A stretch of 64,000 bases of DNA, taken from a virus. Under the pieces are notes generated by a model. That model ran no database searches. It saw nothing but the letters and a program-made list of their open reading frames with translations, and was not told the origin of the DNA. This document shows, piece by piece, positions 3,356-41,731 of the stretch (positions within the stretch are counted from its first letter, which is position 1; the number at the start of each line of letters is the position of its first letter). A program made the position numbers and the translations under genes. The stretch lies in the UHGV virus genome UHGV-0028991; one strand, 5' to 3'.

Positions 3356-3541
3356 TCACTTCCTTGGAAACACATATGTGATTCGGTTATATGACATTGC
3401 ATCTTCGCCTCTCTTCGTTTTGTGGAATCTCGCGCACACAGATTTGCCCCACTCTTTTATACTCTCTACCTCATTGGTCGTTGTTCTGCGCTCCGTGATT
3501 TCTACACGGTTCGGGTAGAAGTATTTCGTAATGATTTTCAT
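3356..3541 (-). CDS. small hypothetical protein (about 61 aa, start MKIITKYF)
   Basis: GGAGG RBS directly upstream of this ATG; the longer ORF in the track has no RBS. Confidence 0.35.
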   Translation of the reverse strand: MKIITKYFYPNRVEITERRTTTNEVESIKEWGKSVCARFHKTKRGEDAMSYNRITYVFPRK

Positions 3542-3610
3542 AAAACCCTCCTCTCTTTCATTACATTTTGTTTTTTTGTTGAAAACCATTGCTTCCTTTA
3601 CTGTGATTTC

Positions 3611-3639
3611 ATTATATCATATACAATTCCACTTGTCAA
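3611..3639 (-). promoter_or_regulatory. consensus sigma-70 promoter (TTGACA, 17 nt, TATAAT) on the minus strand
   Basis: Minus-strand reading is TTGACAagtggaattgtatatgaTATAAT, an exact match to both hexamers with a 17-nt spacer. Confidence 0.6.
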
Positions 3640-3640
3640 T

Positions 3641-3704
3641 ACCTTTTTCAAAAAAATATAAAAAAAATAACTGCTCTGAAATTTCGTCAAATAACAGAGC
3701 AGTT
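3641..3704 (-). terminator. rho-independent terminator
   Basis: Perfect 10-bp stem (AACTGCTCTG/CAGAGCAGTT) with a 16-nt loop, followed on the minus strand by a long U-tract. Confidence 0.65.
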
Positions 3705-4440
3705 AATGTGGACTATGCATCTGTTCACAAATCACGCTATCTGCAAACTTCTTAATATCGCATAGTCTATCCGAGTGAACACTGAAAGACTCGAACTTTC
3801 ATCCTCCCGTCAGCCTCGTCGCTGAATTTCTATCGGCGCTCTCCCTTTGAGCTAAGCGTTCATTTCAAAATGTTTACGCCTGTCCATAAGCGATTGAATT
3901 TTATCACAAAGAATTTTGCGTTGTTTGTGAGCACATTTGATATTTGCAACTCTCTCAAAGTTCATGACGTAAAATCGCGCCGCTTCGGACAACGAGTAAA
4001 ATGTCTTTGTGTAAAATCCGCATCCATACAAATATGTGCTTCGATACATTGCAAATACTACCATGCCCGCACCTCTTTTTTTAATATTTACATAAGATTC
4101 CCTACACAGTAGACAGAGGTCGTTACTTCTACTCCTTAGCACATCCTATTTGTAGTAAGACTGTGTTGCTCTGCTACATAATAACTTGTACCACATTAGA
4201 ATAATTACTATAAACGAAGGAAAGTAATTACTCGCTTCGTGGGTGTCCCATACAAGGCAGGTCCTTTTAATCTTACTACGTGCCCCTCCAACCCTCGGGT
4301 TGTCTTATGTGATTGTGCCTGCTTAGAATCAATCAGCATTACTTCGCCATCACAATCTGCATATCCGACATGCACTACGCATTATCTATACCGGGCACGC
4401 AGCTGATTTGCGCTGAAGCAAATGCTTCAAAATGCCCGTC

Positions 4441-4514
4441 TGGTACTGTAAGATAGTGTCGAACTATCGTCTATCGGTTATAAGCCGATTGCTCTTCCGT
4501 TGAGCTATTACAGC
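4441..4514 (-). tRNA. tRNA with anticodon UAU (Ile-like), CCA encoded
   Basis: Hand-folded cloverleaf: acceptor GCUGUAA/UUACAGU, D-arm GCUC-AACGGAA-GAGC, anticodon arm AUCGG-CUUAUAA-CCGAU, T-arm GAUAG-UUCGACA-CUAUC, discriminator A plus CCA. Confidence 0.7.
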
Positions 4515-5683: not shown

Positions 5684-6014
5684 TTAAATACGAAATGAGA
5701 CTGGTGCGGTGCGCGAAATCACACTATCAATGCTCCATAAATCACAACACGCCTTTTCGTATGCTTCATCAAAGATGTCCTCTTCGATAAAAATCATGAA
5801 ATACTTACGCGAACGCAATGTCTTAAATGTGCTATATTCATATATCCATGCCATTTGTCCGCTTGATGATTGCATTCGCCATTCTCCCTTGCCCTGCCAC
5901 ATTGGACAGAAGCTATATCTGAATTCGAGATATTTCACAATGTCATGGACCGACTCTGTGTTTTTACAAACAAATGCAACACAGCTTATAAGTGGTCGTT
6001 TGTTGTTATTCTTC
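5684..6014 (-). CDS. hypothetical protein (about 110 aa, start MKNNNKRP)
   Basis: Internal ATG chosen so the overlap with the upstream gene is minimal. Confidence 0.3.
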
Positions 6015-19556: not shown

Positions 19557-20447
19557 GTGCCGACAGCAAAAAAGAAAGCTCCGACCAAAAGCATTAGGAC
19601 GGATAGCAGGAATGTGCGGCTGTGCATTGCCTGTGGGTCAAGAAAGCCAATAAGCGATTTTTACTCAACGACATCCGTTCCCAACATGCAATTTTTTGTG
19701 TGCCGCAGGTGTGGCAAAAGATTACTTAAAGACCACACAGATAAGGTAGAAAAGCCGATGGCAGCACTGTGGCTTGTTTTGGCGCAAATGGGCGTACCGT
19801 TCATTTTAGAGGCGTGGTACGCCGCTTCGGAAATGTATGAAAACGACAAAACGGGTGATTTAATTACATTCTACTTGATTTCGCTTGCTAACTTAAATCG
19901 CGTATATGAGGGCTTTTGGCAATCAGATGCCATGTTGTCCGACATGATAAAGACGGGCGTTGGTGGCGAAGTTAAGGATATTGACCGCCATCTCGCAGAC
20001 GCAAACAAGTATAGAGCGCGTTGGGGCGATTATACAGCCGATGATTGGGATTGGCTTGAAAGAGAATATTTAGACTATACGCGCGACCTCGAAGCCATAT
20101 CTGTTTCGGCGGAAAAGGCATATAGGTCTTTATGCAAATGCAATTTGCGCTTTAAGAAAGAAAGCGAGGCAGGCGAAGAAACAAAATCTACAACTGATGA
20201 AATCCTGAAATGGATGAAATTGTTGCGCATAGATGATTTCAGAGACAATACAAAATCGGACGAAGATAGATACATAGACCACTTGGCATGGAAATTTGAG
20301 AATACTGAGCCTGCTGAATTGACGGATGAGGAGCGGTATAAGGATGTTAAGGGCTATGAGAAAATATATAATGATTGGATGCGGTCAATGCAGAATATGA
20401 TTGCGGGGACGAAGAGCTACCCCAATATTCCTAAGGAGCAGTTGTAA
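19557..20447 (+). CDS. putative terminase small subunit or DNA-binding packaging protein (296 aa)
   Basis: GTG start after GGAGGTG RBS. N-terminal Zn-ribbon (CIACG...CRRCG). Its stop overlaps the start of the large terminase exon 1, which is the usual small-terminase position. Confidence 0.4.
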   Translation: MPTAKKKAPTKSIRTDSRNVRLCIACGSRKPISDFYSTTSVPNMQFFVCRRCGKRLLKDHTDKVEKPMAALWLVLAQMGVPFILEAWYAASEMYENDKTGDLITFYLISLANLNRVYEGFWQSDAMLSDMIKTGVGGEVKDIDRHLADANKYRARWGDYTADDWDWLEREYLDYTRDLEAISVSAEKAYRSLCKCNLRFKKESEAGEETKSTTDEILKWMKLLRIDDFRDNTKSDEDRYIDHLAWKFENTEPAELTDEERYKDVKGYEKIYNDWMRSMQNMIAGTKSYPNIPKEQL

Positions 20448-21331
20448 TGCCGACCGCAAGAGAAAACGAACAATTCCGCAAGTCCGAAAATGTCAAAAAG
20501 TGGATAACTTATTATCGCAGGAATTGGGACTTATTTGCTGAAGAAGTTCTTGGCATTAAGCTATATCCTGTGCAGAAGCTGAAATTGCACATGATAGGTG
20601 TTGCCGACGAATATTGGGACTTTTCGTCTCGTTCAACGGCGAAGTCTTTTATTGTTGGTGTTGCCGCATTTTGTGCAATGAGTTTATATCCGCATTCAGA
20701 AATTGTTGTTACATCATCTTCTATCCCGCAGTCTGCAAGACTTGTAAGAGATAAGATGATAAAAGAAATCATTAAGAAATATTCGCCATATTTGAAGTAT
20801 TTGTATGAGAAGGGCTATTTGACAGTTAAAATGCTTGATGAGGGCGTTTTCGTCTTAACGAACACATTAAATGAATCAACGACAACGGTCGCTGTGTGTT
20901 CTGAAAATGCTCGTGGTATGCGTTCCACATTTACGATATATGAAGAGACGCGATTGCTGAAGAAGTCAATTCTCGACTCTGTATTTGAGCCGATGGGGCA
21001 CGAGCGTCCTGCGCCGTTTACACTTGACCCTAAGTATAAAACAGACAGGTGGATAAAGGCGGCAAAATCTTGCTATATTTCATCTACTCGGTATGAGTGG
21101 GAATGGTTTATCAGAGAATACAGAAAATGCGTTGAGGGCTATTATACATCAAAGCACGAGAAGTACATTCCTATGGCAGAGGACATTTATACTGCAATTC
21201 AAGAAGGAAGCCGAACATGGGCGGACTATCGAAAGGCAAAGAAGAAAATGTCCAAAGCGGATTTGAAAAGGTTCGCATTAAACATATTGAATTGCTGGAA
21301 TACCCTTAGAGTTTTATCAGCTACAACATAA
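20447..21331 (+). CDS. terminase large subunit, exon 1 (ATPase domain, 294 aa)
   Basis: Deviant Walker A FSSRSTAKSF (PBSX-type GRGSGKS analogue), Walker B TFTIYEE. The ORF ends with an in-frame stop exactly where intron-like sequence begins. Confidence 0.6.
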   Translation: MPTARENEQFRKSENVKKWITYYRRNWDLFAEEVLGIKLYPVQKLKLHMIGVADEYWDFSSRSTAKSFIVGVAAFCAMSLYPHSEIVVTSSSIPQSARLVRDKMIKEIIKKYSPYLKYLYEKGYLTVKMLDEGVFVLTNTLNESTTTVAVCSENARGMRSTFTIYEETRLLKKSILDSVFEPMGHERPAPFTLDPKYKTDRWIKAAKSCYISSTRYEWEWFIREYRKCVEGYYTSKHEKYIPMAEDIYTAIQEGSRTWADYRKAKKKMSKADLKRFALNILNCWNTLRVLSATT

Positions 21332-22547
21332 GCATGAAATAAGGCTAAGTGTGATATGCGAGAAAATGATAGAAATTGGGCAATCAGCAGCGAAGCCTCG
21401 AATAGAGGAACGTTCAACGACTATCCCGCAAGGGAGTACACAACAAGCGATTGGTTGTGGAAGTGGTATGCCTTTGCACAAAAGCAAAGTGAAGATATAG
21501 TCTTATCTGCGCGGAAACGCGCAGTCTTTCAAAAAAATGAGAGAAACGAGGAGTAGCGACCTATGCTTAAAAGAGTAAATGGGGGACAGCAAGTTGCAAA
21601 TTGTTTTTGTTTGTCTGCAAACAAACAAATTACCCCATTTGTTCTTGAATAATAATCTTTGTTGCAGGAAGGATTTTATAGCATGAATATTTTTGAGGTT
21701 AATGATAAAAATAAATTCTCTTTTAGTTGTATTTATTTATGGCAAAATCTAATAAATGGGAAGGTTTATGTTGGGCAGACGGTGGATTTTTATGCCCGCA
21801 TGAAACAATATTTACGCGAAGACACAAGTAGGCGTATCTGCATGGCTATTAAAAAGTATGGATTTGATAACTTTAGTGTTGAAGTGTTGGAAAGAGACGT
21901 GTCGCACCAAAATTTAACACAACGCGAGCAGTATTGGATAGATTTTTATGATAGTGCCAACGAAGACGTCGGATACAACATATGTCCGGTAGCGGAAAGC
22001 ACAAGAGGATATCACCACAGAGAAGAAGACAAGAAGAGAATGAGCGAAATAGCCAAAAAACGTTTCAAAGAACACCCAGAACAAATAAAACGCGGGAAAG
22101 AGAATCACATGTTCGGCAAAAAACATTCCGAAGAGACAAAAAAGAAAATAAGCCAAAGTATAATGGGCAACCAAAATGTAAAAGGCAAAACATGGAAGCT
22201 TTCGGAAGAAATATGTCGTCGTAGGTCGGAGAGGATGAAAGGTAAGAGGAATGGAGTGGGGCACAAATGTCCAGAAAGCGTAAAAGAGCATCTTAGAAGA
22301 TATAATAAAAATCGAATCTGGACAGAGGAGATGCGAGAGCAATCGCGGATTGCACATCTTAACATTGGCGGGAAGAAACTGATGTGTGTCGAAACGGGAG
22401 TCACTTATGAATCCGTGGCTGAAGCGGGTCGTGCCTTGAACAAGGACCCGTCCTCAATTTCTAAGTGTTGTCGCGGGCAACAACGAATCGCATATGGATT
22501 TCACTGGCAATATATATAATTAACCTCAAAAAAAATAGTTTAAAAAA
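21332..22547 (+). mobile_element. group I intron in the large terminase gene carrying a GIY-YIG homing endonuclease gene
   Basis: R-like element GTTCAACGACTATCC at about 21412-21426 and S-like element GAAGATATAGTCTTA at about 21491-21505 (the two strands of P7). P/Q-like AAATTGGGCAATCAGCAGCG at about 21381-21400. The homing endonuclease ORF lies downstream of S; boundaries are approximate. Confidence 0.6.
21683..22519 (+). CDS. GIY-YIG homing endonuclease (intron-encoded)
   Basis: CIYLWQNLINGKVYVGQTVDFYARMKQY is a GIY-YIG motif. NUMOD3-like repeats GKKHSEETKKKIS and HKCPESVKEHL. C-terminal NUMOD1/HTH-like VAEAGRALNKDPSSISKCC. Confidence 0.75.
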   Translation: MNIFEVNDKNKFSFSCIYLWQNLINGKVYVGQTVDFYARMKQYLREDTSRRICMAIKKYGFDNFSVEVLERDVSHQNLTQREQYWIDFYDSANEDVGYNICPVAESTRGYHHREEDKKRMSEIAKKRFKEHPEQIKRGKENHMFGKKHSEETKKKISQSIMGNQNVKGKTWKLSEEICRRRSERMKGKRNGVGHKCPESVKEHLRRYNKNRIWTEEMREQSRIAHLNIGGKKLMCVETGVTYESVAEAGRALNKDPSSISKCCRGQQRIAYGFHWQYI

Positions 22548-23528
22548 ATGTTTTCAATGGAGATGGAAAATGAAACACAGGGTAGTCCCGAAGGTGCATT
22601 CTTTAGCCTAAAGAATTTTAAGGACAATCAAGAAATTCCAGAGGCATATGTTCCGCCTACCGATACACAAGTGTTGGCGAACACAAAGCCGCCGTTCAGA
22701 GAAAAACAAGCGGACGAAATACGGCTTGTCGGCGTTGACTACGCATTTGCGAACACAACATTTAAGACGGGATACGGCAACGATAATACAATTATTGAGT
22801 GCTGGTCGGCTGTCTGGAAAAACGGTCGGTTCATTCGTAGTCTTGAATATATGGAACAATGGCCCGCATCGGACAGTACAGGCGCACAATGGCGCGTTCG
22901 TGAGCTGTTTTGGGACTATAATGCGGACTTCATTGTAAACGACCTTAGAGCAGGCGGAGAAACACTATATAACCTTATGACCGAAAAAAGGACGCATCCA
23001 AGGCGCGGCTATATGTGGGATTCACGAGGATTGACAGTCGCTCAGAATTTTAACTATCACCTCGTAACAGAATCAAAGCTTGCCGACTTGCGTATGCGGA
23101 CGGTCGATAAGGATGCTGTTCCGTGTATTATTCCTGCTCAGGGCTCGGCACAAAAGAATGGTGTTTGGTGGCTTGCACTTAGAAAGCATCTTGAATGCAA
23201 TGACATAAAGATGCTTATATCTATGGCAGACAAGCAGCAAGAGCTTGAAGATTCGGGCGAGTATTTCAAATTGACCTCAGAAGAATTGGCAGATAAGCTT
23301 GCCCCTTATGGCGAGACAGACCTGCTTATTCAGGAGGCAATCAAACTTAACACAGAAATAAAGGGCGATAACTTATATCTTAAAGAAGACAACAAGGCGA
23401 CTAAAGACCGTGTTGTTGTTATGTCTTATGTCAACATTGTAATTGATAAAATCGAAATGGAATGGAATAAACGCCTGACCAATGACGATGAAGATTATGA
23501 TATTGACGATTTACAACTTGTATATTAA
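22548..23528 (+). CDS. terminase large subunit, exon 2 (RNase H-like nuclease domain)
   Basis: IRLVGVDYAF is the typical nuclease-domain motif with a catalytic Asp. The reading frame is open from 22539. Together with exon 1 it gives a large terminase of roughly 620 aa. Confidence 0.6.
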   Translation: MFSMEMENETQGSPEGAFFSLKNFKDNQEIPEAYVPPTDTQVLANTKPPFREKQADEIRLVGVDYAFANTTFKTGYGNDNTIIECWSAVWKNGRFIRSLEYMEQWPASDSTGAQWRVRELFWDYNADFIVNDLRAGGETLYNLMTEKRTHPRRGYMWDSRGLTVAQNFNYHLVTESKLADLRMRTVDKDAVPCIIPAQGSAQKNGVWWLALRKHLECNDIKMLISMADKQQELEDSGEYFKLTSEELADKLAPYGETDLLIQEAIKLNTEIKGDNLYLKEDNKATKDRVVVMSYVNIVIDKIEMEWNKRLTNDDEDYDIDDLQLVY

Positions 23529-23549: not shown

Positions 23550-25118
23550 GTGAACGGAAAAGAAAGGCTTGAAAGAGAAGAGCTTGAGGACATTATAAAG
23601 TTTTCTGAGGGGCTTGCCTTTATGGATTCTAATTACTATTCGCCATTTTTATCAAATGAGCTTTTGCAGAATTTGAACACAATTAAGGGCGTGCCGTCTT
23701 ATGATGCCATTCAAAAGGCATTGGTTGATTTTAATTCGTGTCCTGAAAATCTGCAAATGTATAATGAGTTCGCGGCTCAATTCAACATGATATTCAGGCG
23801 CACCCTGTATTCTTATGTAAATTCTTTGGCGCTTGATCTGTCTTATGTGTGTACAAATGCATATACAAAGGCGGACTATGAAAGCGCTGAATATGTAAAA
23901 GATAAAGCGCGGGTCGAGGACTTTCTTCTTAACTTTGATTACAAGAAAGAATTCCATAATGTCTTGATGAATGTCATGCGGCGCGAAACATATTTTACAT
24001 GGTTTCGCAAATCAAAGCCTGGTAATGGCAACAAGAAAATGCGGTATGCATTGCAGATGATGCCACAAGACAGATGTATGATTACGGGCTATTGGGAAAA
24101 GGGTTTGCTTTACTCAATGGACATGACATACTTCATGCAGCCGGGCGTTGATATTGGTGAATTTGACCCCGCTATACGCAAGATGTATGAGCGGGTTATG
24201 GAATCTCCAGGCATTGATTATAAACCGTCTGCGCCATTAAATAAGCGAACTGGCACATATGCATTGTGGGCAGATGCGTCACCTGTTCTCGGAGCCTATG
24301 CTTTCAAAATGGACCCATCAACATTTTCGCCCGTGCCGTTCTTGGCATCTTTTGTTAAGAATATTATTCGGGACGAAGAAGTTGAGCGCTTGCAATACAA
24401 TAAAGACCTGATTTCGGCATATGCAATTCTTGTCGGAACAATTCGGCTTTATGATGGTGCAAAATCCGGTGAACAAAAAGACCAGTTTGCAATTAACCTT
24501 AAACTGCTTGGGCAGCTTATGGCAAAGGCAAAGGCGGGATTCGGTTCTCTTGTTAAATTGGGGGCAATGCCTACCGAAGACAATAAACTGTTCCAGTTTG
24601 AGGATAAAAACGGCAACATGTATAAAGACCAAGTTGCGACCACTGCTGCAAGTGGCACTGGCATTAGCCGCGTCATTTATTCTACTGATAGAGTAAGCGC
24701 GGCGGAGCTTGAGGCTCAGCAGAACGAAGTTTATCAAACCATGCGCCCGATGTATGCGCAGTTTAATAACTTTATGGATTTCTTTGTTAATCAAATGACA
24801 AAGAAGTATAAGTTCAAGTTTACATTTGACGGCGCGACATATAGATATGATCGCACTCAAAGATTTGACCAAATTAACAAATTGGCAGACAGGGGCATTG
24901 TTTTGCCGCCATCTGCTTGGGCATCTGTTTTAGGGCAGAACCCCGCATTGTTTGAGGCGGCTTTGAGAGAGAGCAAGAACACTGGATGGCTTGAGCAATA
25001 TAGCCAACTTATGGTAAACATCAATACAACTTCGCAGGAATCAGAAGGTGGCAGACCGCGCGAAGAAGGAGCGGTAGATGCTGCGACCGAGGCAAGCCGC
25101 GAATTGTATGCCGATTAA
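23550..25118 (+). CDS. portal protein (522 aa)
   Basis: Size, position immediately after the large terminase, and an acidic C-terminus; GTG start after GGAGGTG. Confidence 0.55.
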   Translation: MNGKERLEREELEDIIKFSEGLAFMDSNYYSPFLSNELLQNLNTIKGVPSYDAIQKALVDFNSCPENLQMYNEFAAQFNMIFRRTLYSYVNSLALDLSYVCTNAYTKADYESAEYVKDKARVEDFLLNFDYKKEFHNVLMNVMRRETYFTWFRKSKPGNGNKKMRYALQMMPQDRCMITGYWEKGLLYSMDMTYFMQPGVDIGEFDPAIRKMYERVMESPGIDYKPSAPLNKRTGTYALWADASPVLGAYAFKMDPSTFSPVPFLASFVKNIIRDEEVERLQYNKDLISAYAILVGTIRLYDGAKSGEQKDQFAINLKLLGQLMAKAKAGFGSLVKLGAMPTEDNKLFQFEDKNGNMYKDQVATTAASGTGISRVIYSTDRVSAAELEAQQNEVYQTMRPMYAQFNNFMDFFVNQMTKKYKFKFTFDGATYRYDRTQRFDQINKLADRGIVLPPSAWASVLGQNPALFEAALRESKNTGWLEQYSQLMVNINTTSQESEGGRPREEGAVDAATEASRELYAD

Positions 25119-36723: not shown

Positions 36724-37152
36724 ATGGCGAATAAAAACACGAGCTGGAATATTGGCGTAGGTATTGAGATAAAGACAAGCACAAGCGAAATTCAAAAGAA
36801 ATTGAATGAAGCGGCGAAAAATGTCAATATCAATATCAAGGCAAAAGGGGCTAAGGAAGCATCTGACGGAATAAGCAATCTGTCAAAGAACATGAACGAA
36901 GCCTCGTCCAGCGCGAAGAATTTTGAATTAACATATCAAGCGGCAAACATGATTATGGAGAAGAGCATAGAAATTATTAGGTCTATGGTCTCTGAAGTCT
37001 ATACTATGAATGCCGCGCAGGTCGAATTAGCAAAGGTCACAGATTTGTCCGGCGAATCAATGGACGAATATGTGAGCAAGTTGACCGACATGGGAGCAGA
37101 AGTTGCTAAGACGGGTAAACTATGGACGGGAGCCCGTGTGATGGGATGGTAA
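36724..37152 (+). CDS. tail tape-measure protein, exon 1
   Basis: Sequence typical of the N-terminus of TP901-type tape-measure proteins (LAKVTDLSGESMDEYVSKLTDMGAEVAKTG). An in-frame stop is followed by intron-like sequence. Confidence 0.6.
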   Translation: MANKNTSWNIGVGIEIKTSTSEIQKKLNEAAKNVNINIKAKGAKEASDGISNLSKNMNEASSSAKNFELTYQAANMIMEKSIEIIRSMVSEVYTMNAAQVELAKVTDLSGESMDEYVSKLTDMGAEVAKTGKLWTGARVMGW

Positions 37153-37443
37153 ACCAGCACAGAGAATTGTTCAAAACCCAGTAAAACCTAAAGCCTGTTT
37201 AACTACAACATGGGGATGAAATAAGCCCAAGTGTGAATGTGGGAAACTGTTAAAAATAAGCAGGATGGCATATGGTCGAAAGACCTAAGTGCAATTTATC
37301 CCGAATATTATACATTATTTGGGACAAACAATGGTAGATTGGGCGCGAAGTCCCGAACAGGGATGTGTCAAGAGACTCTATAAGTTCGACCCCTCCAAAT
37401 TAAACAGGGTGAAGAAATAGTCCAGAATATTTTGAAAAAGGTA

Positions 37444-37472
37444 TTGACAATCTAAAAGTTATGTGTTATAAT
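37444..37472 (+). promoter_or_regulatory. perfect consensus sigma-70 promoter inside intron 1 (TTGACA, 17 nt, TATAAT)
   Basis: TTGACAatctaaaagttatgtgtTATAAT lies about 30 nt upstream of the RBS and ATG of the intron ORF. Confidence 0.6.
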
Positions 37473-37501
37473 GGCATCAACAAAGAAAGGTGGGCTTGAT
37501 T

Positions 37502-37735
37502 ATGTTGTTAATTGCAGTTCCTTTGATGATGCTTTATTGCGTCTGTTATGGCATTGCTTGTTTCTTCAGGCATGTTGTTTTGGGCATCCCTTTTGATAAG
37601 GACGTTGCCAAGAAAAACAATCCCGAGCAATATAAAAAATGGGAAGAAGAAGATAGGCAGGCTGCAGAGCAGTACAGAAAAGAAGAAAAAGAGCATAACG
37701 ATTGGGGATTTATTGATTACTCCAAGAAAGATTGA
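37502..37735 (+). CDS. intron-encoded small membrane protein (77 aa), not a homing endonuclease
   Basis: AAGGTGGG RBS 8 nt upstream of the ATG. MLLIAVPLMMLYCVCYGIACFF transmembrane helix followed by a K/E-rich cytoplasmic tail. No nuclease motif. Confidence 0.5.
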   Translation: MLLIAVPLMMLYCVCYGIACFFRHVVLGIPFDKDVAKKNNPEQYKKWEEEDRQAAEQYRKEEKEHNDWGFIDYSKKD

Positions 37736-37748
37736 ATAAAAGTCCCAG

Positions 37749-37955
37749 ATGGTGGAAAGCGCTGCCCAATTTGCGAAAGCTGGATTTAATGAAACCGATG
37801 CTGCGCAATTAGCGAAAGTTTCCTCCATGTACCAAAACATTGCCGATGAGCAACTTTCGGCGGGCGAAGCATCTGAGTTTATTATTTCTCAGATGAAAGC
37901 ATTTAATATTACTGCTGAGGAAAGCTTACATATTGCTGATGCGGTTTACTTTTAA
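37749..37955 (+). CDS. tail tape-measure protein, exon 2
   Basis: MVESAAQFAKAGFNETDAAQLAKVSSMYQNIADEQLSAGEASEFIISQMKAFNITAEESLHIADAVYF resembles the tape-measure core domain; stop codon at the exon/intron junction. Confidence 0.55.
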   Translation: MVESAAQFAKAGFNETDAAQLAKVSSMYQNIADEQLSAGEASEFIISQMKAFNITAEESLHIADAVYF

Positions 37956-38322
37956 TTGGCCGCTACGAGGTGAATTGTCGGGGACGAGGGTTCAGCGCCC
38001 TATCTGCGCAATTTTATGCGTGGATGCCTAAAGATTTGAACACCAACCTATCATGGTGACATAGATGGGGGCTTAGAGTAATTAACTAAGGCATGGTAAA
38101 AGGTTCAAATATATATGGTCAATCCGCAACTAAGCGTCTGCATTGCAGATGAAAGCTCACAGACTATCCCATAGGTCTTAACAGACAATAGGAGTACGGC
38201 CCAAGCCAAGGGTGGGTGAGAACCCCTTAAATGGAAGCGCCTCGCTTTGGTATTTTACCAAGGAAGATATAGTCGGGTCTTATAAGAAATTTATAAGCGT
38301 TTGAATATTCAAACGGTCGTAG
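37956..38322 (+). mobile_element. group I intron 2 in the tape-measure gene (no ORF)
   Basis: All four conserved elements are present: P GAATTGTCGGGGACGAGGGTTCA (about 37972-37995), Q AATCCGCAAC (38121-38130), R GCTCACAGACTATCC (about 38155-38170), S AAGATATAGTCGGG (about 38264-38277). Confidence 0.65.
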
Positions 38323-38466
38323 TTGGCGGCTACGGCAAACTTATATCGCAATAACGTATCAAATAATATGTCTGTTTCTTCAGCAGATTTAGCTCGAAAC
38401 CTCGGAAATATGTCCGCCGCAATGTCTGTCGGCGGGAACACGATGGAAGAGAGCATTGGCTTAGGT
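38323..38466 (+). CDS. tail tape-measure protein, exon 3
   Basis: Frame open from 38323. Encodes ...NMSVSSADLARNLGNMSAAMSVGGNTMEESIGLG (tape-measure-like), then a stop at the junction. Confidence 0.5.
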
Positions 38467-38760
38467 TAATAGGTCAATTAAAAACCTATAAATTGACGGG
38501 AAGTTCCTTAGAGCTCTATATACTAAACCGTATTAGTAATAATGCGGCGGAGCAAGTAATGACTGCTGTATAGTAACAAATATAGAGATTGGATAATCCG
38601 CAGCAAGTTATCAATAGGTCATTGATAACTGTTCAACGACCAGTAAGCCCTACTAATTCAGTAGGCATACTCGCAAGCGCGGGGAAACATAGGTGAAAAA
38701 GATATGGTCTAATCTCTGTCGAAAGGCAGAGGGCTAATAAAGCCGTTTAGAGAGTAGCGT
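38467..38760 (+). mobile_element. group I intron 3 in the tape-measure gene (no ORF)
   Basis: P AATAATGCGGCGGAGCAAG (about 38541-38560), Q AATCCGCAGC (38595-38604, exact consensus), R CTGTTCAACGACCAGTA (about 38631-38647), S AAAGATATGGTCTAA (about 38707-38721). The 3-prime boundary is approximate. Confidence 0.6.
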
Positions 38761-41731
38761 CTCTAAGCAAATAAATTATGTATTAACTGGCATTACCGAG
38801 ATTACTCGTTCAGCGGCATCCGCATCTCGTGCATTAGTCACAATCCAAAGCAGATTTAATCAGATTGTAGATGAATCTTCAAGCACTGGTCAGAATCTGT
38901 TAAAATGGTACACAAAGCACGGAATTGCAGTTAAGGATGATGCTGGGCAGTTAAGGTCGCTGTATGATGTTATGTCCGACCTTGCGCCTAAGTGGAACTC
39001 ACTTACCAAGAATGAGCAATCTTATTTCATGCAACAGGCGGCGGGTGCCCGGCAATCTCAAAATCTCGCCGCATTGCTTTCTAACTTTAAGGGCGTTCAA
39101 GAAGCAACTGCCCTTGCATATGATTCTTCAGGTTCGGCAGCAGCAGAAAATGCAAAAGTCCTTGAATCTCTTGATGCAAAAACAACCGCATTAAAAGCAA
39201 CATGGCAAGATTTTGCAAACAAAACCATTGACAGCGAATTAGTTAAGTCTTTGCTTAACTTGGCTAATGGCGCGTTAAAAGTATTGAACACCGAAGCAGG
39301 CAGAACTTTAACACAATTTGTTTTGCTGAGCGGCGTTTTCACTGGGCTCGGCGGAATTATTGCGCAGGTCATTCCGGTCGCAATAAAATCGATAAAAGCA
39401 TTTACATCTGTTTTGGCTGGCGCGACAACTGGCGTAAAAGCATTGCAGGCGTCTGTGCCTGTCATTGGCATTGCAATGGCGGCGCTAACGGTTATGATAG
39501 GGCTTGTTAAAGATGCTTATGATGCGCAGTATGGCACAATCAACAAGATAAACAAGTCCATAGAAACAATTAACGCCACCTATACCGATGCCACAAATGT
39601 TGCTAAGGCAAATGCCGAACAGGCAAAATATTTGGTTGGGGTAATTTCAGACCTTAACAAGGTTGAGAATATGTCTACGAGTGAGGCGTATAAGTACAAA
39701 AGCGCTGTAGACCAACTTAATAAAATTTACCCCGACTTGAATCTCAGCATTGGCGAACACACTGGCAAAATCCAAGAAGATACTGGTGCAATTTATAAAC
39801 GCATCGAAGCGATGAAGCAAGAGGCGCTTCAAGCGGCGTTGCAAGAAAAGCAAGCGGCTTATTATGGGCAAATAATAGAGTCAAAAGCATCTCGCGAATC
39901 TGCAGGCGATGAACTACGCGCTGAGATACAAGAGCTCCAAGAAAAGCTAAAACAACTCAGAGACGCGTTCGGATTCGATATAACGGGACTCGGAGAAAAC
40001 CTTGATGTCGATGTCTCTTTAATGGATACGGATAGTCTGATTCGCTTTTACGAGAATTTCCTTCGATATGGAACATTCCCGAGCTATATGTCAAAAGAGA
40101 TTAGCGCTACCATTGAAGAAATAAGGCAGTATGACGAGGCGATTGAAAACGCGGAAGGAAAATTAGAAGGAGCTAATGATGCGGCTCAATCGCTCGGGGA
40201 AACTGTTGTAAACCTTAACACCCAAGCAGGCAAAAATGCAGGAGCAACAAAAACTCAGCGAGATAATGTTGACAATCTCGTAAAAGCACAAAATGCATTA
40301 AACAAGGCAATTCAGGACTACAATGCTTATGGCGGTTTGCAATCTGAAACGCAAGAAGCATTAGACGAAGCGTTGCCTGGTCTAAACGAACTGCTTTATG
40401 ACGAAACAGGCGCGTTGACGTCTGCTGGTAAAGCCGCGTTGCGCGGAAGCAAGGAATTGGCGCAATTCGTTCTGTTGCAAAAACAAGAGGAATTACAGGC
40501 TCAGAAAACGGCATTGTCGCACGCCGAAGCCGCAAAAGCAGAGGCGCTAAGATTCAGGACAAGGCAGAGTTTAATGGGGCAAACACAGCTTTTGTCAATA
40601 GCTGAAGAAGCCGAAGCTGAAGCAGCCCGACAGGATGCATTAGCAACCGCTGCAGAACAGAACATAAAAAATATCGAAGATGAGATTGCGTGGCTGGAAC
40701 AACTGCTCGCAACATACAGCTCTGGTTCGAGTGCCGCATCTTCCGCCGCCGACGCTTACAAAAAAGCATTTACAGACTGGCTTGCATATAAAGACCATCA
40801 ACTTGCAATGGACGAAATCACAGAAGAGCAGTATTATGCTGAGCTTACTGAAATGGTCGATAAATTCTTTAAGGGCAGAGCTGAATATCAAGAAGAATAT
40901 TGGCAATACTCTGAAAAGATTTATGCGTATGAAAAGAAGCGCATGCAAGAGCTGGTCGAAGAATCGACTAAGGCGGTCGAGGACGCAGTTGATAAAATCA
41001 ACGAAAAGTACGATTCTGAGTTGTCGCGGCTTGAAGAAGTCAACGATGCCCTGTCCGACCAAATTGAATACGAGAAACTGCTCGATGAAATGGCTAAGGC
41101 AAGGGAGCAGAAAAAGCTTGTATACAAAGACGGTCGATTCCAGTATGTGCAAGATGTGGATGCAATATCTGCCGCGCAGGCTAAGCTTGATGAATATAAT
41201 CGCAACAAGGGCTTAGAAGCAAGTAAAGCTGATATTGAAGCCCGCAGAAAAGCAGAGGTCAGACAGACCATTCTCGACAAGATGCAGGCTAATAGCGCAG
41301 CATGGGCAACATCAAGTAGTCCCGCTGAGCGTGAGGCATTGCATAATGCAAATGTTGAGCTGGCGAAACTGCTTGAAGATAATTCGACCTATGATGCCGC
41401 AACGGGCAAATGGTCAAGCTATGCGGGCGGCACACTTGGTGCGGCTGGCGGAATGAGCCTTGTCGGAGAGAATGGTCCCGAAATGCGTATTCTTAATCGC
41501 GGCGACGGCATACTCACAAGTGGCGTTACTAAGAATTTGTTCGCATGGGGCAGCACGTCTCCGAGCGATTTTGTATCTGCACTCAAGGGCTTAATGGGCT
41601 TTAAGCTTGGCAATTCCAGCAACACTACTGTGAATGTCAGCAACCTTGAATTGCCCAATGTAACAAATGCAAGAGAGTTTGTAACCGGGCTGAAAAATCT
41701 TGCACTTCAATATGCTTACGAGAGGGGATAA
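38741..41731 (+). CDS. tail tape-measure protein, exon 4 (main body)
   Basis: Frame open from 38741; first ATG at 38972. Long Ala/Gln-rich coiled-coil, a transmembrane-like segment (LLSGVFTGLGGIIAQVIPVAI), and a C-terminal region typical of tape-measure proteins. About 990 codons. Confidence 0.7.
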   Translation, partial: SRLESSVSKQINYVLTGITEITRSAASASRALVTIQSRFNQIVDESSSTGQNLLKWYTKHGIAVKDDAGQLRSLYDVMSDLAPKWNSLTKNEQSYFMQQAAGARQSQNLAALLSNFKGVQEATALAYDSSGSAAAENAKVLESLDAKTTALKATWQDFANKTIDSELVKSLLNLANGALKVLNTEAGRTLTQFVLLSGVFTGLGGIIAQVIPVAIKSIKAFTSVLAGATTGVKALQASVPVIGIAMAALTVMIGLVKDAYDAQYGTINKINKSIETINATYTDATNVAKANAEQAKYLVGVISDLNKVENMSTSEAYKYKSAVDQLNKIYPDLNLSIGEHTGKIQEDTGAIYKRIEAMKQEALQAALQEKQAAYYGQIIESKASRESAGDELRAEIQELQEKLKQLRDAFGFDITGLGENLDVDVSLMDTDSLIRFYENFLRYGTFPSYMSKEISATIEEIRQYDEAIENAEGKLEGANDAAQSLGETVVNLNTQAGKNAGATKTQRDNVDNLVKAQNALNKAIQDYNAYGGLQSETQEALDEALPGLNELLYDETGALTSAGKAALRGSKELAQFVLLQKQEELQAQKTALSHAEAAKAEALRFRTRQSLMGQTQLLSIAEEAEAEAARQDALATAAEQNIKNIEDEIAWLEQLLATYSSGSSAASSAADAYKKAFTDWLAYKDHQLAMDEITEEQYYAELTEMVDKFFKGRAEYQEEYWQYSEKIYAYEKKRMQELVEESTKAVEDAVDKINEKYDSELSRLEEVNDALSDQIEYEKLLDEMAKAREQKKLVYKDGRFQYVQDVDAISAAQAKLDEYNRNKGLEASKADIEARRKAEVRQTILDKMQANSAAWATSSSPAEREALHNANVELAKLLEDNSTYDAATGKWSSYAGGTLGAAGGMSLVGENGPEMRILNRGDGILTSGVTKNLFAWGSTSPSDFVSALKGLMGFKLGNSSNTTVNVSNLELPNVTNAREFVTGLKNLALQYAYERG

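Follow-up and report, generated by a model that had tools for sequence, protein, structure and literature searches.

In the nrdD (sunY) intron of phage T4, the catalytic core is located at the 5′ end and the gene of the endonuclease I-TevII lies in a long 3′ extension; in the T4 td intron, the open reading frame (ORF) is placed in the loop of P6. Terminases are listed among the usual phage intron targets in a review (PMC3984707). Group I introns were reported in 5 of 52 large terminase (terL) genes of the Bastillevirinae, with splicing demonstrated for phage SIOphi (PMC11878797), and terL is split in most genomes of the gut “Jug” jumbo phages, the splicing evidence for these introns being reverse transcription-polymerase chain reaction/nanopore sequencing and, for the Jug phages, supporting metatranscriptome reads (PMC11878797, PMC12880540). 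We describe here the large terminase gene of a 64,000-base stretch of the virus genome UHGV-0028991 (hereafter the window), which is very probably made of two exons interrupted by a phage-type (IA) group I intron that contains a GIY-YIG homing endonuclease gene (Table 1). The analysis of this locus established a ribozyme fold and the precise site of insertion, showed a presence/absence polymorphism, identified the terminase and found the endonuclease gene intact; splicing is predicted. Terminase group I introns are already documented, and nothing at this locus departs from the known mechanism. The host gene class is that of the Bastillevirinae and Jug introns, some of which also carry endonuclease genes, whereas the terminase lineages and the insertion sites are unrelated, and the Bastillevirinae terL introns listed in PMC11878797 carry VSR-type endonucleases instead of a GIY-YIG enzyme. 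The same terminase family, with about 40% identity, is found in the Enterocloster phage CB457P2 and its relatives (GenBank OP172753-57), whose terL intron is compared below.

Two plus-strand ORFs, 20447–21331 (294 amino acids, aa) and 22548–23528 (326 aa), are separated by 1,216 bases, and on these coordinates we agree with an earlier first-pass annotation made by a model from the letters. This annotation had taken the interval 21332–22547 as the intron; the interval is the gap between the two ORFs, and both ends of the intron lie outside it. The last 69 bases (23 codons) of the upstream ORF belong to the intron and correspond to the 3′ strand of P1, to P3, P4 and P5, and to a portion of the P5 extension, and these 23 codons are missing in all the homologues. 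At the other end, the ATG of the downstream ORF (22548–22550) represents the final three bases of the intron. When 20447–21262 is joined to 22551–23528, a protein of 597 aa is encoded, with a junction reading SKAD/FSMEMENE (here and below, a slash between exon sequences marks the insertion point).

The comparison with closely related alleles provided the position of the insertion. In contigs L003, L005 and L006, the flanks are 88–97% identical to the window and the exact intron stretch is missing, the alignments breaking at 21253–21264 and 22551–22560. Contig L007 (96% identical) carries the intron and the endonuclease gene at the identical site. An uninterrupted 597-aa database protein, P0001, showed 97% identity over 100% of the predicted spliced product, and reads KKMSLSD/FRMEIENETQG where the window reads KKMSKAD/FSMEMENETQG. 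The intron-less site in L005 is GTCGCGGAT/TTTCGCGCAGAG, and the predicted spliced junction of the window is AAAGCGGAT joined to TTTTCAATGG.

The boundary features of group I introns, namely the 5′ U·G wobble in P1, the terminal G and P10, are all present and coincide with the boundaries given by the intron-less alleles. In P1, GCGGAU (21257–21262) pairs with GUUCGC (21271–21276), and the wobble pair U21262·G21271 marks the 5′ splice site directly after U21262. This hairpin was also returned by an unconstrained fold and has the same sequence in L007. The P1 register proposed by Rfam (AUUUGAA with UUCGCAU, one mismatch) was replaced by GCGGAUUU/AGGUUCGC, which places the U·G pair at the junction. 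In an alternative pairing, P10, the bases A21267–G21270 could face the UUUU of the 3′ exon (22551–22554) and form four pairs (UUUU with AAAG). The 3′ splice site is directly after G22550, and the alignment of exon 2 to the intron-less L003 begins at 22551. This site is 1,026 bases past P9 because the endonuclease gene occupies the 3′ extension of the intron. When in-frame splice combinations starting with U and ending with G were scored against the large terminase (TerL) of Enterocloster phage PMBT24, the candidates were not separable (1093 vs 1091 and 1084), as the linker is poorly conserved in the protein alignment. The junction was settled by the intron-less allele with 97% identity, in agreement with the register of P1. 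A repeated AAAAAAAUG at 21531–21539 and 22542–22550 was considered as a cryptic proximal 3′ site or a relic of endonuclease insertion, and rejected: the bases at this place are ACG in L007, and the loop of P9.1 accounts for the first copy.

A covariance-model search with the group I intron family of Rfam (RF00028) matched positions 21255–21524 over the full length of the model (model positions 1–253) with a score of 77 bits (E 8e-18), the curated gathering score being 50 bits. A ribozyme fold is therefore detected, where the first-pass annotation had allowed for a free-standing endonuclease gene lacking one. The conserved core helices P3 to P9, including the P3/P7 pseudoknot, are all present. 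The intron is of the phage IA type, because P7.1 and P7.2 lie between P7 and P3′. The R-like, S-like and P/Q-like strings quoted earlier, GTTCAACGACTATCC (21412–21426), GAAGATATAGTC (21491–21502) and AAATTGGGCAATCAGCAGCG (21373–21392), were found to be exact and unique, with about 0–0.1 occurrences expected by chance. The description of the P/Q-like region as compact was mistaken, as the quoted string corresponds to P5′, J5-4, P4′ (Q) and the start of P6, and a 72-base P5a/P5b extension separates the P from the Q element. The arrangement resembles that of the T4 nrdD intron: in both of these IA-type introns the core comes before the endonuclease gene, and the 3′ splice site lies far away and is set by P9.0 and P10. 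They differ in the interrupted gene (a terminase instead of a ribonucleotide reductase), in the endonuclease, in the lack of P2 and in the presence of the P5a/P5b extension in the window.

Covariation was analyzed in a set of 15 introns composed of the window, L007, CB457P2 and 12 IMG/VR introns that share their architecture. RNAalifold independently found P3 to P6, P7.1, P7.2 and P9, with compensatory changes in 34 of 55 pairs. In the named pseudoknotted structure, 94.7% of the cells can pair, as compared to 35–42% when the partners are slid by one to three columns. Compensatory changes affected 41 of the 65 named pairs, and none of 500 shuffles attained the observed values. Nine differences distinguish the cores of the window and L007 introns, all of them located in loops or junctions or preserving the pairing. 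P9 shows two compensatory double changes between them (21511/21520 and 21512/21519), and U21528C in L007 converts a U·G into a C-G pair in the P9.1-like stem.

The ORF inside the intron matched the Pfam models GIY-YIG (PF01541, E 6e-11) and NUMOD3 (E 1e-8), and PHROG 314 “homing endonuclease” (E 7e-41). The gene had been described as a complete GIY-YIG/NUMOD3/NUMOD1 endonuclease; the first two domains were recovered, and the matches to NUMOD1 (E 0.008) and I-HmuI_NUMOD-like (E 0.0016) are weak and under the Pfam cut-offs. The catalytic domain aligned to the I-TevI structures 1ln0 and 1mk0 (E 4e-4), with the IY...YVG motifs and the equivalents of R27, E75 and N90 conserved, and the C-terminal 49 residues matched PDB 8b6e (E 1.7e-4). 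The mechanical ORF begins with a TTG at 21659; the likely start is the ATG at 21683, preceded by GGAAGGA at 21667–21673, and when it is read from this methionine, the protein can be aligned over its full length to the intron endonuclease annotated in CB457P2. The ORF is intact in both the window and L007, with 27 synonymous vs 16 non-synonymous codon differences. All 16 non-synonymous changes are within the first 152 residues, and the C-terminal 126 residues show ten synonymous differences and no amino-acid change. This pattern points to purifying selection on a working protein, whose activity and target are predicted. As in the T4 td intron, an enzyme of the I-TevI family with a linker of the NUMOD3 type and a putative helix-turn-helix-like domain at its C-terminus is associated with an IA-type ribozyme; unlike in td, the ORF lies after P9, the target gene is different, and the match of the catalytic domain is distant (E 4e-4). 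In a single-sequence fold, the GGAAGGA ribosome-binding site is predicted to be paired in a small hairpin (AAUCUUU with AAGGAUU, 21647–21682), a situation reminiscent of the translational control of the T4 intron endonucleases.

We propose the following succession of events. Once the gene is transcribed, a ribozyme would form from the 260 bases at the 5′ end of the intron, and a free guanosine would attack after U21262, held in P1 via the U·G wobble. P10 and P9.0 would then align the 3′ exon, the terminal G22550 would occupy the guanosine site, and the ligation of the exons would restore the SKAD/FSMEMENE sequence and the 597-aa terminase. During mixed infection, terminase alleles devoid of the intron would be cleaved close to D272/F273 by the I-TevI-like GIY-YIG enzyme, and repair off the intron-bearing copy would spread the intron (homing). 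The presence/absence polymorphism at a single site and the excess of synonymous differences provide indirect support for homing.

Several points speak against the explanation proposed here. Splicing is predicted from the sequence; the intron is devoid of P2, and P10 and P9.0 are short (four and two pairs), so that the position of the remote 3′ splice site rests mainly on the comparison with the intron-less alleles. The C-terminal DNA-binding domain of the endonuclease reaches Pfam models only under their cut-offs. In the set of 15 introns, P4, P7 and P7.1 are invariant, and P7 and P7.1 count neither way since both were fixed by the search pattern. The intron could be real and no longer splicing, as in a decaying, defective phage, or it could depend on a host or phage protein cofactor: it has no P2, its P10 and P9.0 are short, its 3′ splice site is 1 kb off the core, and some Bastillevirinae introns are spliced in vivo only (PMC11878797). 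We consider this very unlikely, given that the core helices and the conserved junction sequences are all intact, that the substitutions relative to L007 preserve the structure, and that the arrangement is maintained in two lineages diverged by about 4%, both with an intact endonuclease ORF showing the synonymous excess; splicing may nevertheless require a protein cofactor.

An in-frame 3′ site after G22538 (UAG/UUUAAAAAAAUG), which would add FKKM to the linker, likewise possesses a terminal G, a three-pair P10 with UUU and a reading frame that stays open into exon 2, and gave the third-best in-frame splice combination by score. The use of this site is highly improbable: P0001 and the three intron-less contigs do not have the extra codons, the similarity starts at 22551, and G22550 provides both the four-pair P10 and a linker length equal to that of PMBT24 TerL.

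The terminase identity of the two exons was taken from the homologues and from a fold search, because Pfam and PHROGs gave no terminase name for either ORF and sequence and profile searches of PDB found nothing. The products of exons 1 and 2 are about 42% and 41% identical, respectively, to the N- and C-terminal halves of PMBT24 TerL, a single 632-aa protein annotated “terminase large subunit”, and are more distantly similar to the YonF-type terminases of SPbeta. An AlphaFold model of the spliced 597-aa protein, built from a 30-sequence alignment, had a mean predicted local distance difference test score (pLDDT) of 82.9. With this model, Foldseek retrieved T4 gp17 (3cpe, E 9e-15) and the terminases of Sf6, D6E, HK97 and T7, as well as isolated ATPase (P74-26, T4 gp17) and nuclease (Sf6 gp2, RB49 gp17) domains. 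Among 30 homologues, R62/K66 and E167 in exon 1 are family-invariant and could be read as Walker A-like and Walker B-like residues, respectively; D335, D403 and D558 are family-invariant in exon 2. Near the insertion point, D272 and F273 show almost no variation in these homologues, and E276 and N279 none. Judging from the modelled fold, the host gene is a large terminase with an N-terminal ASCE ATPase and a C-terminal RNase H-like nuclease, and neither half is a complete enzyme. The ORF directly downstream (23550–25118) matched PHROG 2739 “portal protein” (6.5e-29). The earlier claim that a group I intron interrupts the large terminase is thus borne out by the Rfam match and the covariation, by the absence of the insert from near-identical alleles and by the terminase fold of the joined exons. 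Gene callers will give two orphan “hypothetical” ORFs and an endonuclease instead of one terminase, as in the GenBank records of related Enterocloster phages, and the exact junction 21262/22551 allows the annotation of a single 597-aa terminase.

In the model, the insertion point falls within the helix 270–277 linking the ATPase and nuclease domains. A split in the inter-domain linker, together with the individual start and stop codons of the two ORFs, would also be compatible with a free-standing endonuclease gene inserted between domains that are translated separately and assemble independently of RNA splicing, and phage genes split by free-standing endonuclease genes are known (PMC10448857, PMC2677866). 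Such an arrangement is extremely improbable here, as a complete, covariation-backed ribozyme flanks the endonuclease gene, the final 23 codons of the upstream ORF are ribozyme sequence found in no homologue, the ATG at 22548 is preceded by UAGUUUAAAAAAAUG with no Shine-Dalgarno sequence, and the edges of the insert bear the U·G and terminal-G signatures of group I introns.

Immediately around the insertion site, at positions −9 to −7 and +4 to +9 (window 21254–21262 and 22554–22559), alleles with and without the intron have different exon bases, AAAGCGGAT/TTTTCAATG vs GTCGCGGAT/TTTCGCGCA, the rest being identical over 45 bases on both sides. This difference could fit co-conversion, immunity of the target site to the endonuclease or an adjustment to P1/P10. 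Together, the related contigs and the window constitute a set of intron-plus and intron-minus alleles suited to tests of homing and ribozyme re-targeting in gut phages. The intron-less alleles contain a CNNNG motif (CAAAG) 22–26 bases 5′ of the point of insertion, at a spacing which we take to be near the cleavage distance of I-TevI; it could easily be due to chance and is given as a lead only.

Table 1. Coordinates of the terminase locus, of the elements of its intron and of related introns (window positions unless a contig is named).
Feature	Position	Strand	Remarks
Large terminase exon 1	20447–21262	+	codons 1–272, ATPase domain; end set by intron-less alleles
Large terminase exon 2	22551–23528	+	codons 273–597; linker helix and RNase H-like nuclease domain
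Group I intron	21263–22550	+	1,288 bases, phase 0, between codons D272 (GAT) and F273 (TTT); Rfam RF00028 and intron-less alleles
P1 hairpin	21257–21276	+	GCGGAU/UU, GAAA loop, AGGUUCGC; pairs checked base by base
Ribozyme core	21283–21524	+	each pair confirmed in sequence; no P2
P element AATTGCTGG	21290–21298	+	upstream of the quoted P/Q-like string
P3	21283–88/21465–70	+	
P4	21293–98/21384–89	+	
P5	21303–05/21378–80	+	
P5a	21312–19/21367–74	+	
P5b	21326–33/21344–52	+	
P6	21390–92/21411–13	+	
P6a	21396–99/21405–08	+	
P7	21419–23/21498–502	+	
P7.1	21424–27/21432–35	+	GCAA loop
P7.2	21439–44/21454–59	+	6/6 pairs covary
P8	21472–77/21484–89	+	
P9	21507–13/21518–24	+	GAAA loop
P9.1-like stem	21525–31/21538–44	+	single-sequence fold only; name positional, tentative
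Long hairpin after P9	21571–21646	+	single-sequence fold only
Homing endonuclease gene	21683–22519	+	278 aa, I-TevI-like GIY-YIG, NUMOD3 and putative C-terminal helix-turn-helix-like domain
Intron 3′ end	22548–22550	+	A22548–U22549 can pair with A21505–U21506 (P9.0); G22550 terminal guanosine
Tape-measure gene	36724–41731		apparently four exons, three ORF-less group I-like introns, roughly 37130–37750, 37940–38320, 38440–38970
Portal intron	L138 (OCLD01000510.1) 3500–3791; L007 5771–6916	− (L138)	
L137 intron	ERZ1034928 NODE-25 (96,950 bases) 159–444	−	first part of tape-measure gene; Rfam 101.6 bits; has P2
CB457P2 terminase region	L002, OP172754.1, 3890–7332		interrupted twice

The intron of the CB457P2 terL gene is 1,272 bases long. 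Its core is about 79% identical at the DNA level to that of the window (95.9 bits in Rfam), and its GIY-YIG/NUMOD3 endonuclease has the same architecture, with 38% identity. It possesses P2, which the window intron lacks, and lies at another site, D437/L438 in PMBT24 numbering, corresponding to D403/L404 of the window in the nuclease active-site motif. The second interruption of the CB457P2 gene is an insert of about 278 bases that contains no ORF, at G186/E187 (PMBT24 numbering), equivalent to G157/M158 of the window, for which Rfam gave no match. In the GenBank records, the three exons are annotated as separate hypothetical proteins. The site described here brings the number of intron insertion sites in this terminase family to three.

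The first-pass annotation had counted four group I introns in the structural module and suggested an intron family that is actively spreading. Three additional Rfam group I matches were indeed found in the tape-measure gene, of which 38410–38731 (51.5 bits) reaches the Rfam threshold, the two others scoring 34.6 bits (37893–38296) and 22.5 bits (37287–37444). The four joined ORF peptides are collinear with the uninterrupted tape-measure genes of PMBT24 and of Bacillus phages. The tape-measure introns and the terminase intron share only a 56-base P5 module, with 80% identity, and within the window they are only distantly related; no paralogue of the endonuclease was found in the window. The suggested spread is partly supported, by related contigs and not by the window: near-identical cores occur there in the portal and tape-measure genes.

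In a sister phage represented by contigs L007 and L138 (96% identical to the window), a second intron is present in the portal gene, between window positions 24284 and 24306; the portal gene of the window is uninterrupted. The 226-base core of this portal intron in L138 (79.2 bits in Rfam) and that of the terminase intron in the same genome do not differ at any position (100% identity). The portal intron has a different P1 (guide sequence) and P9, and its ORF encodes an unrelated DUF7487/DUF559 (Vsr-like) endonuclease. In contig L137, the core of an intron in the tape-measure gene is 91% identical over 188 bases to that of the window terminase intron. The related cores in CB457P2, L007/L138 and L137 therefore place one ribozyme lineage in the genes of the terminase, the portal and the tape measure across related phages, and the accompanying endonucleases differ. 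It is possible, and we put it forward tentatively, that a single ribozyme core is moved or copied among structural genes independently of the endonuclease within this gut Clostridia phage lineage. This hypothesis would imply a very recent duplication of the ribozyme, or gene conversion, within the genome, with re-targeting by an exchange of P1 and of the endonuclease.

The portal intron core is incomplete in the L007 sequence (IMG/VR), where a junction at 5883/5881 replaces 96 bases that comprise P5′, P4′, P6, P7.1 and the 5′ strand of P7. These bases are present in L138 (an ENA contig), and the flanks are 100% identical in the two contigs. The deletion is probably an assembly error at a repeat within the genome, or a minor variant. 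The idea of a dead or trans-acting ribozyme was dropped as the L138 core is complete (79 bits).

Immediately upstream of the terminase gene, the ORF 19557–20447 overlaps its start by one base and matched PHROG 3314 (unknown function). A weak Pfam match to YonG_N was observed for its homologue in L003, and this ORF could encode the small terminase in a packaging module resembling that of SPbeta. Finally, Rfam detected two tRNA genes on the minus strand of the window, at positions 4444–4514 (66.7 bits) and 3776–3861 (44.8 bits).

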